This document shows positions 1-8,023 of a DNA stretch of 64,000 nucleotides, piece by piece (the first letter of the stretch is position 1; each line of letters starts with the position of its first letter). The notes beneath the pieces are model-generated. The model ran no database searches, had not been told where the DNA came from, and saw nothing but the letters and a program-made list of their open reading frames with translations. The position numbers and the translations under genes are program-made. The stretch is from Eledone cirrhosa (lineage: Eukaryota), in the NCBI GenBank assembly GCA_964016885.1, contig OZ024742.1, positions 356,190,001 to 356,254,000 on the forward strand, in the 5' to 3' direction.

Positions 1-724
1 GGCTTGTATAGCTCTCACAAGACATTCGTCAACACCTAGTTTTCTACCAGATAATGGAACGGGGGACTCTGTCGAAGGCTTTCTCCAAGTCAACAAAAGC
101 TAATATAGGGGTTTACTTTTAGCTAGGTACTTCTCCTGTAGTTGTCGTACAATGAAAAGAGCGTCTGTGGTACTTTTGCCTGACACAAACCCGAACTGCA
201 TTTCATCTCGATCAATTCTCTCTCTGATTAGTTGCGCTACTACTTTTTCCGTGACCTTCATGACCTTGTCGATTAATTTAATGCCTCTATAGTTACACCT
301 ATCTAGGGCATCTCCTTTACCCTTGTAACAGGTAATGATGATGCTGCTATGCCAGTCCTTCGGAACAACCCCATTCTGTATGATTGGTTTACTATCCGGG
401 TGACCATGGTGTGTCCCACCGTTCCAGAGGTTTTCAGCATCTCAGCAATTATTTCCGAAGGCCCAGCTGCCTTACCCGTCTTCATATCTTTGATTGCCTT
501 ACTTATTATACTACCTTCGACTAACACTGCTGGTCCCTCTATTGGGTCGATGTGTGGGAGACTGTCTTTCTCCCATTTGTTCTCCTCATTTAGAAGCCTT
601 TCGTAGTGACACTTCCAAGCTACCTTCTTATCAGCGTCAGTGATGGCAAGTATGCCATCATCATTAAGTACACACTTCTCCCCGACAATATCACGGTTTT
701 CCTTGACACATTGCCTAGCAATCC
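1..724 (-). mobile_element. RTE-clade LINE fragment (linker plus RT N-terminal part), degenerate, running off the window
   Basis: Reverse complement is nearly identical to 42055-42755 (IARQCVKENRDIVGEKC...KTGKAAGP..., LEKAFDRVP); contains a frameshift and a 9-bp deletion. Confidence 0.92.
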
Positions 725-806
725 TGTAAACAAACTGACTGCCTGAATTTATGCCGTACGGTGTTAAGTCAACCACGTCACCTTTTTGTTCAACACTGAC
801 ACAGGA

Positions 807-849
807 ACGATGTACTAGTTTCAAGCTTCTTAGCTATCATCAGCACCGT
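807..849 (-). ncRNA. Minimal type I hammerhead ribozyme
   Basis: Minus strand reads ACGGTG-CTGATGA-t AGCT aaga AGCT t-GAAA-CTAG-TA|CATCGT: intact core, stem I ACGGTG/CATCGT, palindromic stem III ACTAGT, GUA cleavage triplet. Confidence 0.8.
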
Positions 850-1050
850 ATACCCTTCTGCCAGATGGTTGAAAGTTCGAAAGTATATACTTTCCTTATG
901 AAAATTAACGGATGAGCAGCCTAATTTGCATATCGAGTGAGTTCAGTCGGCCAGGCGCACCGAAAACGATAAGTTGTAATAAAATGAAAACGAAATTTCA
1001 TTTCTCACTCTATATACTTTCGAACGTTCAACCATCTGGCAGAAGGGTAT

Positions 1051-1093
1051 ACGGTGCTGATGATAGCTAAGAATCTTGAAACTAGTACATCGT
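1051..1093 (+). ncRNA. Minimal type I hammerhead ribozyme
   Basis: ACGGTG-CTGATGA(1057-1063)-tagctaagaatctt-GAAA(1078-1081)-CTAGTA|CATCGT; predicted cleavage after A1087; stem II has one extra mismatch relative to the 807-849 copy. Confidence 0.75.
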
Positions 1094-1240
1094 TCCTGTG
1101 TCAGTGTTGAACAAAATGGTGACGTGGTTGCTTTAACACCGTACAGCATAAATTCAGGCTGTCAGTTTGTTTACAAACCGACAAAGCGGGCGTTATAATA
1201 AACGTCCGTTAAACTGATACGTACATATATGTATGTGTAC

Positions 1241-1293
<53 letters not shown>

Positions 1294-1410
1294 TGCTACT
1301 GTACGTCTGTATACATATATGTATGTACGTATACATACATACTTACATTTAAGTAAGTGCCGTACTAAGAGTGAGAAATGAAATTTCATTTTCATTTTAT
1401 TACAACTTAT

Positions 1411-2095
<685 letters not shown>

Positions 2096-2096
<1 letters not shown>

Positions 2097-2980
2097 AGTA
2101 GAGTAGCTAGAGTCAGAACTGGATGGAAAAGTTCAGAGAGCTTATACCACTATTAGCCGCTAAAGGGTTCTCCCTAAAAATGAGAGGCAGGCTGTATGAT
2201 GCCAGTATACGAACAGCAATGTTGCATGGCAGTGAGACCTGGGCATTGTGTGCAGAGGATATACGCAGACTAGAGAGGAACGAAGCTTGCATGCTCCGCC
2301 GGATGTGTAAACGGCAAAGCATAAACGAACTAAGGGAAGAATTAGAAATAAGAGGAATCAGATGTTGTTTACTCGAGGGAAGGCTACGTTGGTATGGTCA
2401 CGTGATGCGCATGAAAGACGACAGCTGTATAAAAAAGTGCAGGGCAATAAAAATAGACGGTAGCTACGGAGTAGACAGACCCAGAAAAACCTGGGACGAC
2501 CTGATAAATTCCGACCTCACACACTTACACCTCTCCAAGACAATGTCACTGGACCGAGATCTTTGGCACTACACAGTAATAGAGAAGACCCGCCTTACCT
2601 AAATACAAAGTAAAACCTACTACAGTCAGTAGGCACCTCTAACAAAATATACCCCGTCCGACTACCCCCACCCCATCCACACCACCCCTTTCAATGTAAA
2701 GTTATGTTGGTACCACAACATCCAGCCCGAAACAAATGAGGTCGTGTAGGTATCACGACAAAAAAACACAGTCCACGCTGTAAGGTGGCCGTGTAGGTAA
2801 CACGGTAAAAACCTCCGAGTCCCACACTGTAAATGTGGTTGGTGTTAGGAAGGCCATCCAGCCGTAGAAAACCCGCCAGACAGTCCTATGCGAGCAAGAC
2901 AACCACTCTTGCCTCAAGTGGGAAAACTCCCGTCCAAACCCATGCAAGCGTGGAATATGGACGTTAAACGATATGATGAT
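2096..2980 (+). mobile_element. 5'-truncated RTE LINE (ORF C-terminus, 3'UTR, GAT tail)
   Basis: ORF 2123-2602 (FRELIPLL...LHGSETW...RLRWYGHVMR...RPRKTW); 3'UTR matches 43880-44272. Confidence 0.93.
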
Positions 2981-3021
2981 ACGATATTAACAAATGGAAA
3001 CTATATTTATAAAACCATGTT

Positions 3022-3086
3022 TATTTCATTATACATATTTCAAGGACACCAAGTTAAATTATGGTGTTCTTTCATCAGATAAAATA
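3022..3086 (-). ncRNA. Type I hammerhead ribozyme (long stem II, minimal stem III)
   Basis: Minus strand reads TATTTTAT-CTGATGA-AAGaACACCA taatttaact TGGTGTcCTT-GAAA-TATGTA-TA|ATGAAATA. Confidence 0.78.
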
Positions 3087-3238
3087 TAATATAGACCAGT
3101 TTTATAAATAAATATTGACATACCTTTAAAGAATGCGAACATTACTGTTGGAAGCTCCCGGATAGTAATGGTTGCAATAGTAATGGTGGCATTCGTTAAG
3201 GGTATGTCAATATTTATTCATAAAACTGCTCTATATTA

Positions 3239-3303
3239 TATTTTATCTGATGAAAGCACACCATAATTTAACTTGGTGTCCTTGAAATATGTATAATGAA
3301 ATA
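3239..3303 (+). ncRNA. Type I hammerhead ribozyme (long stem II, minimal stem III)
   Basis: Stem I TATTTTAT/ATGAAATA (8 bp, one GU); CTGATGA 3247-3253; stem II AAG..CACCA/TGGTG..CTT; GAAA 3284-3287; stem III ATA-tg-TAT; AUA triplet with cleavage after A3295. Confidence 0.78.
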
Positions 3304-3389
3304 AATATGGTTTTATAAATTTAGTTTCCATTTGTTAATATCGTATTTTTACTCCAATCGCTAAAGTTGAGTGCAGATGTGGTACCTCC

Positions 3390-3830
3390 GTGATCTTATC
3401 TGCCAGCTCGGCGAGTTCTTCGATGGTGGTGGACTCCCTGGTGGATGCTAGTACAACTTGTGTGGAGGTACCAAATCTGCACTCAACTTTAGCGAATGTG
3501 ACGCCAGCCGTGCCTTCCACCAATCCATTCCTTCAGCGCTCCAGTGCCACAGAGATGCCCGATCTACACCAGTTACTGGCACAGCAAGACACACAGATAC
3601 AGGCCTTGACGCAACAAATTCAGGCCTTATCACTGGGCAACCCTGCCACGGGTCGATCCAACAGTCGAACTCGCCGATTTGGTGTTCGCTCAAGAAGTTC
3701 CAGCGCATCTCGAGATTCACCAGAAATGTGTTGGTAACACCAAAGATTCGGGAGACGAGCGCAAAAGTGCAGCCATCCCTGTTCATTTGTTTCGAAAACG
3801 AATCAGGGAAACGACACAGCCAGAAACTGA
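3390..3830 (+). pseudogene. gag: Gypsy gag C-terminus; the first ~75 bp are inverted
   Basis: [17 protein letters not shown] zinc knuckle with a premature TAA at 3735-3737; the typical gag peptide VLAS..IEELAELADKI reads on the minus strand at 3390-3463. Confidence 0.8.
3806..3812 (+). promoter_or_regulatory. -1 ribosomal frameshift slippery heptamer G GGA AAC (gag-pol)
   Basis: X XXY YYZ phased in the gag frame (Q-G-N); the -1 frame is the pol frame (G-K-R). Confidence 0.75.
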
Positions 3831-6800
3831 ATGCGACGGACGTTTCTGGCCCTCATAACCAAAGTCGCCTATTTTTCATTCAGGATCGCGTCACAGGCAT
3901 GCGTTTCCTTGTCGTCACCGGTGCTGAAGTGAGCATCATCCCGGTTTCCTGCGTTCCTGGAAAAAGGAGAGAGACACCAGCCTGGCTCCAGGCGGTGAAT
4001 CAGTCACATATTCCGACCTACAGAGAACAGTCCCTGACACTAAATTTGGGGCTACGCCGCACTTTCCAGTGGGTATTCGTTGTGGCTAAGCTGCCAACCC
4101 CTATTTTAGGAGCTGATTTTCTTCAGCACTTCTCGCTTCTAGTGGATCTGAAAAACCAACGACTCGTTGACAACTCCACTGGTCTCGCTTTGCGCGGCAT
4201 AGCCGCTAGGACAGCCACAGTCAGTCCAGTCATTTCACGATCGACAACAACAACCCGGCACAACCACATCATCAACAAATACCCAGACGTAGCTCGACCA
4301 CTATTCAACGCTTGCCTTGTAAAACATGACGTCACACACCACATAAAAACTCACGGCCCACCTGTCGCTGCACGACCTAGACGGCTACCACCAGACCGGC
4401 TGAAGTCCGTCAAACAAGAATTTCAGCACATGCTGGATCACGGCATCATACGTCCGTCCAGCAGCAATTGGTCCTCACACATACACTGTGTACCCAAGAA
4501 GTCGTCGAACGACTGGCGAATCTGTGGCGACTACCGTGCACTAAACAACTGCACCGTTCCTGACTCTTATCAAGTGCCTCATCTACAGGACTTCTCTAGC
4601 TCGCTGCACGGGGCTCGCATGTTTTCGAAGATCGATTTTGTGCGAGCTTACAATCAGATACCCGTTGAGCCCGCAGATATTCTAAAGACCGCAGTCACAA
4701 CACCCTTTGGAATGTTCGAATTTCTGCGTATGCCTTTCGGTTTGCGAAATACAGCGCAGACATTCCAGCGATTCATCGATACAGTCACCAGACGTCTACC
4801 TTTTGTCTACGCATACATTGACGACTTACTGGTGGCCAGCAGCTCCGATGAAGAACATGAGAAACACCTGGATCTCCTATTCACACGTTTGCGTGAATAC
4901 AGAATTGTTATCAACCCCAGCAAATGCGAGTTCGGTGTTGCGTCCCTTCATTTTCTGGGACACATCATTGACAAAGGTGGAATTCGCCAACTTAAGGAGA
5001 AAGTCAAATCCATCATTGATTTTCCACAACCTACATCTCTCCGCAAACTGCGAGAATTTCTTGGCCTGGTAAACTTCTACAGAAGATTTATACTCCACTG
5101 TGCAGAGACAGCCCAACCACTCATAGATTTGCTGCGGCAGCGTACAACCAAAAACGCAAACATCAAGCTCAGCGAAAAAGAATGTACCGCTTTCGCTGAG
5201 TTGAAGAAAATGTTGTCCGAGGCTACAATGCTGAGTTACCCCAAACCTGACGCCCCAATGTGTTTATTGACTGATGCATCCGATTTCGGAGTTGGAGGTG
5301 TGCTTCAACAACTCTCTGGCGATATGTGGCGACCTGTATCCTTTTTCTCTAAGCGATTAAAACCCGCCAAAACTAAGTACAGCACATTCAGTCGTGAATT
5401 ATTGGCAGCATACCTTGCTGTCAAGCATTTTCGACACATGCTAGAAGGTCGTGTGTTCTCTATATACACCGACCACAAACCACTAGTGTACGCGTTCAGT
5501 GCCAAGCCTGACCGACATTCACCCAGGGAGGTCCGACATCTGGACTTCATTTCTCAGTACACTACTATATTCGGTACATTAAGGGTTCCACCAATTCAGC
5601 AGCTGATGCCCTATCGCGCATGGAGCTTAACGCAATCCACACCACTGCCACTATCGACCTCCAGAGGATTGCAGCGGATCAACAGAATGACGAGGAACTG
5701 CTGCAACTCCGGAAATCATCCTTGAAATTGAAGGAATGCCCGCTGTCCTCTTCTTCGGGTTATATTTGGTACGACATCTCCACAGGCCACGAGCGCCCAT
5801 ACGTGCCCCGGAAACATCGACGCGACGTTTTATCGGCACTGCATTCTCTGGCACATCCTGGCGTCCGCGCCACGCAGAAACTGATGGTTGCCCGCTTTGT
5901 GTGGCCCAACATCAACAAGGACACCCGCGAATGGGCTAGGAACTGCATCGCGTGCCAGAAGGCGAAAATTCACCGGCACATCAAAGCCCCGATCGGTTCT
6001 TTCCCAACACCTGATGCACGATTCCAACATGTGCATATAGACATCGTTGGACCTTTGCCCCCTTCTCACAACTACACTCATCTTCTCACCTGTGTCGACC
6101 GATTTTCTCGCTGGCCAGAAGCTTTTCCCCTGACGGATACTACTGCGGAAACTGTCGCCAAAACGCTAGTGTTTCACTGGGTTTCGCGTTTCGGCACACC
6201 CGTGACCATCATTACGGATAGAGGACGTCAGTTCGATTCGCACCTATTTACCGAGCTAACTCGTCTCCTCGGGTGCAAACACATCCGTACAACAGCGTAT
6301 CACCCTGCCGCTAACGGCATGGTAGAACGCTTACACCGCCAGCTAAAATCATCTATCAAGGCTTACGAAGACTCTACTAACTGGTTCGAATACCTCCCAC
6401 TCATTCTTCTTGGTATTCGTTCCACTGTTAAGGAGGGAGTCGGACATTCTCCGGCTGAAATGGTGTGTGGCACCGTACTCACTCTACCCGGACAAATGAT
6501 TGCTCCTGTTTCGCCACAAGAACTTCCAGACCCTACAAAATATGTGCACCGTTTACGGTCATCGATGTCGCATCTGTCTCCTTCAGCCCCCAAACAACAG
6601 CACGTTACTTCACACATACCAAAAGACATCGATACATGGACGCATGTTTTCGTTAGAAATGACGGTATTCCATCGCAATTTCGTCCGCCGTATTCCGGGC
6701 CCTATAAGGTGATACAGAAATGCCCTAAGTATTTCGTCCACGACTTGAACGGGAAACGAAATACAGTCTCCATTGATCGTTTAAAAAAAGCGTTCATAGA

Positions 6801-6921
6801 ACAGGAATTGCCACCAGTACCCACCGTTTCTCCAGCAGACTCACCAACAACTTTGCCCGACACACCAAATCTGGAAGAACAGTCCGATGGCCCACGCGAT
6901 ACATACAAGTTTATCGGGTAA
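3806..6921 (+). pseudogene. pol: Gypsy pol: protease, reverse transcriptase, RNase H, integrase
   Basis: [10 protein letters not shown] (catalytic DTG mutated to VTG); [20 protein letters not shown]; TDAS..., YTDHKPL; frameshift near 5570 (IRYIKG..N.AADALSR); [41 protein letters not shown]. Confidence 0.93.
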
Positions 6922-7319
6922 GTACAAATTATGCATCTGGTCGACATTTCGGCTAATTTGTACATTTCAACGAATCGGCCAATTTCTGTGGTCATGAACT
7001 ATTGCTACACACAAATCAATTAACTCTGTGCATCACCCACATCAAAAGAACAGACAAAAGAATATTTTTCCGTTTCTATGAAATGCATGAACTTTTAATC
7101 AACAAACTTTTCGTACGAACATTTTCAATTTTATGTAACATCACAGTACATTTTCCTGCATGTAAATTTCTTTTGCTTTGCATGTTTTCTTTCATTTCTC
7201 CAGTTTGTAAATGACTTTCATGTGTTTATTATTTTTACTGATTTTCTTCAACAACACACCTAGTCATACCTATCTTCATTTCATATGCACCTAGATCGTT
7301 CAATCTTAGCTTTCTCACT

Positions 7320-7800
7320 GGGCGAATCACTCGAAACCGAATCTGAGCTTTCCCGCCTCTGGTAAAGCCGTGGTAACTTGTTTACGCTCAAGAGACTAAC
7401 CCCTTGGGAGAGGCTAAACACAGGTCAGAGGTGTTTACGCCTGACAGAAAATAGGTCAGAGGATATATCCATCTTTCTGACTTGTTTACGCTTGGCAAAC
7501 TAATCCCTTGGGAGACTAACCAAAGTTCAGAGGATATATCTATCCTTCTAACTTCAACTCTTATAAATACAGGGAATGTTTACGCCTCGAGTAGAAAAGA
7601 AGTGAGATACAGACAAAACAAGTCGTTTTTACAAGCTCTCGTCACGAAAAACCAGTCTGCCACTTATTCTCACCTTCCTGGCTGATCGCTGACTCCTGCA
7701 ATACAAATAAGTAAATATACTGATACGCCACACACACGCATTCATAGTGAGTCCAGCATTTTACACGCCCCATTCATTTCTGTTTACACATATTATAATC
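7320..7800 (+). repeat. Probable partial 3' LTR
   Basis: Follows the Gypsy 3'UTR; short internal duplications, 5x TGTTTAC and TATAAATA at ~7562; PPT and TG start not seen; no 5' LTR available for comparison. Confidence 0.4.
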
Positions 7801-8023
7801 GTATTCTGTGATACTTGAATTTACGTGGCTCAAAGAGCGACCAAATTATTGTATGAATATTTTGTGTCAATTATTTTATCATTCAATATTCAAATTGAAT
7901 ATTGTTGTAATAAAATAAACTTTGTAACAACACAATCCTGGTATTTTTCTTTACATCGAAACCACCATACCAACAGTTACATCCATCCATCCACTTATCG
8001 TTACAACCACACATAATATTCCG

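Follow-up and report, generated by a model that had tools for sequence, protein, structure and literature searches.

What kind of sequence carries a hammerhead ribozyme motif on each strand of a single long hairpin, and how did the two copies come to lie head-to-head? The question is raised by a locus at 2979-3358 of the stretch of Eledone cirrhosa DNA analysed here (the window; 64,000 nucleotides of contig OZ024742.1), which a first-pass annotation had read as a second, unrelated ribozyme hairpin. We trace its arms to a family of Penelope-like retrotransposons (PLEs), and the value of the hairpin lies in the statistics of that family, which offer a clue to the mechanism of integration.

Structure of the hairpin

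The locus holds two inverted arms, at 2979-3153 and 3172-3346, each 175 nt long and 94% complementary to the other, with 18 nt between them. The arms differ at 11 of the 175 positions, six of which fall within the outer 151 bp, the length to which the arms had originally been confined; the inverted pairing is real, the arms are longer, and what had been taken for a partly paired spacer is arm sequence plus a 15-nt duplication. The 368-nt rod (2979-3346) is predicted to fold at -233.9 kcal/mol (z -34), a stability equalled by 0 of 100 shuffles. With both inverted arms present and an intact type I motif in each, the description of the locus as a 368-bp rod with one hammerhead per strand is upheld, as is its left boundary at 2979; the right boundary moves from 3346 to 3358 to take in 12 nt of the family tail.

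In terms of the family described below, the left arm (2979-3167, minus strand) is a pLTR copy that runs from a short 3′ end at 2979 to the common 5′ stop 187 nt upstream and is 95% identical to natural copies. The right arm (3168-3358, plus strand) is a sense pLTR copy of the long-ended type, 96% identical over 3175-3358 and cut 12 nt into its tail; these nucleotides (3347-3358, plus strand) are the first 12 of an 88-nt tail, the other 76 nt being absent from the window. The two copies meet at a head-to-head junction (3162-3191) formed by about 5 nt common to both arms and a 15-nt tandem duplication (3162-3176 and 3177-3191; D18).

On the left, the copy is flanked by the AT/GAT-rich 3′ end of a LINE (2940-2978, plus strand), which we take to be of the RTE type; it is the likely insertion target, has AT in common with the short end and is not a (TA)n tract. 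On the right, 3359-3465 (minus strand) is a piece of a neighbouring LTR-retrotransposon-like element, presumably Gypsy-type to judge from its motifs, which is inverted at this locus; in the remaining 39 of the 40 scored copies it runs in line with the piece downstream. The local inversion spans 3359-3493, comes with a 31-bp inverted duplication and was seen, among these 40 copies, at this locus only. The Penelope copy has lost its right end, likely through this later rearrangement of its neighbour.

A type I hammerhead motif in both arms

The letters CTGATGA...GAAA occur at 3247-3287 on the plus strand and at 3078-3038 on the minus strand, and both arms have the core (CUGANGA, GAAA, UH) and the three stems of a type I hammerhead. 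In the right-arm motif (3239-3303, plus strand), stem I pairs 3239-3246 with 3296-3303 over 8 bp, CUGAUGA occupies 3247-3253, in stem II a C.C mismatch separates 3 bp from 5 bp, GAAA lies at 3284-3287, stem III (3287-3294) is self-complementary with 3 bp and a 2-nt loop, and the AUA triplet stands at 3293-3295; on this strand the original description, with its long stem II and near-palindromic stem III, proved accurate. In the left-arm motif (3022-3086, minus strand), CUGAUGA lies at 3078-3072 and GAAA at 3041-3038, and the predicted cut falls after 3030.

An Rfam search over window 1-8000 gave no hammerhead match at E ≤ 1, only chance miRNA matches on a TA tract, and when the motif is folded in isolation its minimum-energy structure is not a hammerhead. 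Without stem III, the ribozyme fold amounts to -7.7 kcal/mol, and the stem III dimer to -2.2 kcal/mol. As monomers, hammerheads with a small palindromic helix III are described as cleaving weakly, if at all (PMC4209133), and a loop III of 2 nt, as in the present motif, suggests that a second ribozyme is required. A common palindromic stem III and a fourth stem II position that is unpaired recur in at least five sibling hammerhead families (L143, L144, L146, L133, L158, L059, L141), whose stems I and II covary; judging by the common stem III, dimers could form between families.

Among 15 hand-picked motifs of the sibling families, in which the invariance of the core holds by construction, 12 of 19 stem pairs have changed on both sides and 93.7% of cells are paired. 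Slid controls pair 33-53%, and 0 of 500 shuffles reach the covariation score, which is inflated by the relatedness of the motifs. In 26 more distant, blast-derived arms, which include a few deleted copies and one antisense match, 16 of 286 core letters have changed, compared with 216 of 780 in stem II and 10% in the flanks; position 7 has changed in 10 of the 26. The motif was thus maintained in active lineages, a result that is uninformative on the window copy. The core is also intact in 118 of 139 close arms, with 20 of 1,529 core letters changed vs. 248 of 10,904 in the flanks, although many of these copies were chosen by exact core match, so the comparison was not counted as evidence of selection. 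The ribozyme motif, maintained in the active donors, is a passenger in the copy at 2979-3358.

Upstream of the hammerhead, a motif at 3200-3208 resembles a 5′ splice site, and the tail of another copy (L016) has a motif resembling a 3′ splice site. If sites of these two kinds were used together, splicing could remove the ribozyme from the 5′ UTR; a spliced joint was absent from the contigs of three runs of one sample, contigs that may be DNA.

Affiliation with Penelope-like elements

An exact-match search of the 3.0-Gb genome with a 31-nt probe over the hammerhead core returned 3,924 matches, and 0 with the reversed control. Among 20 copies selected for an ORF, an arm lies within 10 kb in 20/20 and, in 16/20, stands in sense downstream of an ORF for RT and a GIY-YIG endonuclease. 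In one copy (L067), an inverted short-ended repeat and then a sense repeat precede the ORF, a UTR and a tailed repeat come after it, and (TA)n stands at either extremity; the ATG lies 47 nt past the long end of the sense repeat. In another (L031), a 5′-truncated RT/endonuclease ORF is followed by a long UTR and then by the arm with its tail, and an inverted 365-bp copy stands at the 5′ end. The pLTR flanks the ORF on both sides, in partial tandems, in L067, L056, L057 and L063, and the unit is about 4 kb long with a long 3′ UTR. As in EN+ Penelope-like elements, a single ORF with, by motifs, an RT plus a GIY-YIG endonuclease at the C-terminal end is linked to the repeat, and an inverted 5′-truncated copy occurs at the 5′ end (49 head-to-head pairs at 81 loci).

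The natural ORF pieces contain RWR, DKT, YRDD, CxCX5C, IVY..YVG, CxxC-E and CxH. DKG has become DKT in L067, L056 and L063, and RWR, a conservative variant, takes the position of the Hydra RWK in L067 and L056. The CxCX5C linker, found in L067 and L049, has the same layout as the alignment rows given in PMC8557442. The L049 endonuclease has one Cys inside the GIY-YIG core, CDLCIEE and CRH, and CCHH is absent. Insertion is of the Hydra type, into (TA)n, at 123 of 134 fixed ends in the position-ordered sample defined below. The Neptune and Nematis clades were ruled out by the linker, which is CxCX5C instead of CX2-5CxxC, and by the absence of CCHH. Pfam returned 0 families for two partial ORFs, and the 55 relatives found by a protein search (32-42% identity) provide no clade label, since nearly all of them are unnamed.

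Because the arm lies in sense beside the ORF and L067 has the layout given above, the arm is almost certainly the pLTR of an EN+ Penelope-like element, assigned by its motifs to the Hydra clade. The locus is therefore no stand-alone ribozyme element; it belongs to a retrotransposon of a known kind that is present in thousands of copies. A non-LTR retrozyme was also considered for 2979-3358 and ruled out, the arrangement being head-to-head, not head-to-tail, and ORF-linked. More distant Penelope-like ORFs adjoin copies of the pLTR family at L032:4117-6148, L034:6359-7908 and L057:554-1771 (all on the minus strand), where they are likely nested in the same (TA)n tracts.

Two fixed 3′ ends and their pairing

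Ends were counted in a position-ordered sample, the first 100 exact 31-mer matches along contig C1, which after removal of four overlapping or duplicated loci comprised 81 loci with 49 head-to-head pairs. By eye, 13 compact head-to-head pairs (within 300 bp) were counted among the first 100 matches listed. Among 145 arms with at least 88% identity, 64 have a short 3′ end, 70 have a long one and 11 end elsewhere; the two end sites are 88 nt apart, and the stretch between them constitutes the tail present on one end. TA repeats follow directly after 60/64 short ends and 63/70 long ends, and contigs from an independent run have TA loose ends at both sites.

The two kinds of end are combined almost without exception: 38 of the 49 pairs are short+long, one is short+short, none is long+long and 10 have one unscorable end, so that short+long accounts for 38 of 39 fully scored pairs (p 7e-11 vs. 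one half). One selected set gave 15 short+long, two long+long, one short+short and three unscorable pairs, and another seven short+long, one long+long, no short+short and two unscorable; together, three long+long and one short+short exceptions stand against 22 short+long. The window copy follows the rule, with its left arm short-ended and its right arm reaching 12 nt into the tail before the inversion. The suggestion that the palindromic form might recur with fixed ends is thereby confirmed, in the shape of two fixed 3′ sites and a short+long rule that dozens of loci follow. The idea that the long arm stalls on reaching the short site was rejected, as tail-only arms are, by eye, not commoner than an even spread.

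The element at 725-1410 of the window belongs to a separate hammerhead family (loci L098-L122), retrozyme-like in its head-to-tail tandems of about 490 bp, with inversions. This family has two 3′ ends, 59 nt apart and beside (TA)n, and is short+long in 12/12 scorable loci of 23. The first-pass annotation had pointed out that the two elements have the same fold-back architecture; it was right, and the inverted-pLTR insertion explains the likeness, the pairing rule being common to both.

Whole palindromic insertions of the Penelope-like family have also been duplicated locally, as seen in a mirror pair in L092 (G000:C1:56024544-56025800) and in the identical junctions, 11 kb apart, of L170 and L171.

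Variants and 5′ stop common to both arms

The arms of a pair agree at 198 of 211 polymorphic sites (80 pairs), compared with 63% when partners are shuffled (maximum 73% of 1000), and both arms therefore come from one source. At the 5′ side, the stop falls between -187 and -182, counted from the short end, in 40 of 143 arms, while 32 run on upstream. Among 48 pairs scored for 5′ extent, both arms reach -180 in 16, of which both stop in seven, both run on in nine (five of these from the ORF-selected set) and none is mixed, vs. an estimated eight or so mixed pairs if the arms were independent. The 5′ stop is thus likely a property of the template, namely its 5′ end.

In 31 compact pairs, the short arm extends further upstream in 22 and the long arm in six, with three ties. 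In those 22, each arm holds sequence absent from its partner, and therefore neither can there have been copied from the other. In most compact pairs the junction gap is close to zero, and the inner junctions are asymmetric and differ from copy to copy. Larger palindromes enclose ORF sequence; compact ones like 2979-3358 would be copies of the transcript leader.

A probable integration mechanism and its alternatives

We conclude with considerable confidence that the insertion at 2979-3358 consists of two head-to-head pLTR copies, likely made when both cut ends in AT-rich DNA primed RT on the same RNA at sites 88 nt apart. Two-ended priming itself we regard as probable, since the short+long pairing, the shared variants and the shared 5′ stop favour two priming events on one RNA over fold-back. 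The element protein, probably a dimer, would cut both strands of a (TA)n-like target; one DNA end would then prime at the short site, its counterpart at the long site, aided by AT microhomology; both cDNAs would pass through the uncut hammerhead toward the 5′ end of the RNA, likely the transcription start at -187; and microhomology would join the two cDNA ends into a palindrome. The template may be one RNA or two RNAs of the same donor, and strand displacement synthesis is assumed for overlapping arms on one RNA. The in vitro behaviour reported for a PLE of Anolis (PAc, Poseidon of Anolis carolinensis; PMC11167929) resembles this proposal in that both strands of an AT-rich target are cut and extended, synthesis starts at two tail-bounding sites of an uncut RNA template, and a dimer is predicted; it is from this behaviour together with the genomic counts that we infer one priming site for each DNA end. 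That PLEs at large integrate in this manner, with a dimeric protein, one RNA, two start sites and both target strands extended at once, is a generalization towards which we lean only slightly.

In a published alternative for inverted pLTRs, argued from palindromes at inverted junctions (PMC3846280), the same element would have gained its second arm when the first cDNA, or an antisense template, primed itself or folded back. Such an event would also yield arms with common variants and accords with the near-zero junction gaps, but we consider it unlikely, because in 22/31 compact pairs the short arm reaches further upstream while the long arm alone has the tail, both outer ends lie at fixed sites beside (TA)n, and the junctions vary and lack symmetry. 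That a non-autonomous palindrome, MITE-like or retrozyme-like, moves as a unit might be suggested by the abundance of the compact form and its fixed outer ends; it is very improbable given that the inner junction varies between copies, the arms are unequal (an 88-nt tail on one), the same ends flank ORF-containing copies, and each palindrome looks freshly made and not copied from a master palindrome. The chance of an assembly chimera is negligible: short-read assemblies reportedly have difficulty with inverted PLE structures (PMC8557442), but the arms differ at 11/175 positions and have unequal ends, and the palindrome and its end rule repeat at dozens of loci, as the first-pass annotation had already argued from the arm mismatches.

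A different kind of explanation would see in the locus a functional ribozyme/antisense switch or a selected source of dsRNA, ADAR-edited or diced. As had been proposed, a transcript in either direction would contain one ribozyme and its antisense, since the arms are head-to-head; both cores are intact, the 368-nt rod would form upon transcription, and similar rods are many, the 13 compact pairs counted by eye among the first 100 matches listed being examples. The accompanying idea of a competition between cleavage and rod formation stands insofar as the geometry allows both forms, but the contest is lopsided (-7.7 vs. -233.9 kcal/mol). Because of the head-to-head order the antisense arm is always transcribed first, and with these energies read-through RNA is predicted to keep the ribozyme inactive, locked within the rod; if transcribed, the rod could serve ADAR or Dicer as a substrate. 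Intact cores are moreover normal in a young pLTR family (118/139 arms, part of which were picked for the core); at about 3% change per arm the estimated chance that both survive is near even, and the genomic copies are without an A>G excess (4.5 per 1000 vs. 5.4 for T>C). We therefore find a selected function at this locus hard to credit, and return to two-ended priming.

The pairing rule, the shared variants and the shared 5′ stop form a genomic argument for two-ended priming on one RNA. If this is true, the tail and the inverted repeat of PLEs, two long-standing oddities, are one event, which as a side effect has scattered through the genome hundreds of ribozyme hairpins that silence themselves. 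Two-ended priming would also explain the fold-back shape common to unrelated hammerhead families in the Eledone cirrhosa genome.

Relation to known systems

Head-to-head pLTRs with a hammerhead on each strand are already published. As described by Craig et al. 2021 (PMC8557442), the Hydra clade resembles the window family in DKT, CxCX5C, the lack of CCHH, CxxC/CxH around conserved E and N, (TA)n targets and a sense hammerhead near the 3′ end, and Penelope-13_HM, like the window hairpin, has a 5′-truncated inverted copy with a hammerhead on both strands. The window family differs in having RWR where Hydra has RWK, a unit of about 4 kb where Hydra elements are 'generally <3 kb', and a tail of 88 nt compared with 30-40; its hammerhead sequence is unlike those tabulated there, Hydra-1_Obim included. 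The same paper calls the origin of PLE inverted repeats and the one-sided tail an open question.

Penelope and Poseidon likewise have head-to-head inverted pLTRs with a tail on one (PMC3846280; PMC8557442, Fig. 2 legend), but there the arrangement is described as optional or frequent and explained by self-priming, whereas here it is a near-strict rule in two families. PAc belongs to another clade, and its hammerhead overlaps the ORF start, unlike the window family with its ATG 47 nt past the long end; the portion of that study covered here leaves inverted pLTRs unexplained (PMC11167929). As in the PLE hammerheads of Cervera and de la Pena 2014 (PMC4209133), the motif is of type I with a long helix II and a palindromic helix III, whereas the 8-bp stem I and the fourth-position mismatch of stem II, conserved across sibling families, set the window family apart from those described there. 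In Schistosoma, the same source reports dual hammerhead motifs 100-700 bp apart on opposite strands. A counted pairing rule or a twin-priming model was found nowhere in the literature searched, outside of which lay older subscription papers and some supplements.

Other sequences in the window

When a near-full natural copy was compared with the window by blastn, the matches were the two arms and a sibling at 62429-62651, and none fell in 725-1410, in keeping with the earlier statement that the two elements have no sequence in common outside the catalytic core. The sibling (minus strand), 84% identical, represents a related pLTR subfamily and has a tail and a hammerhead variant of its own. The surrounding 58000-64000 has a GC content of 0.09-0.19 and a strong G skew, and probably consists of simple repeats.
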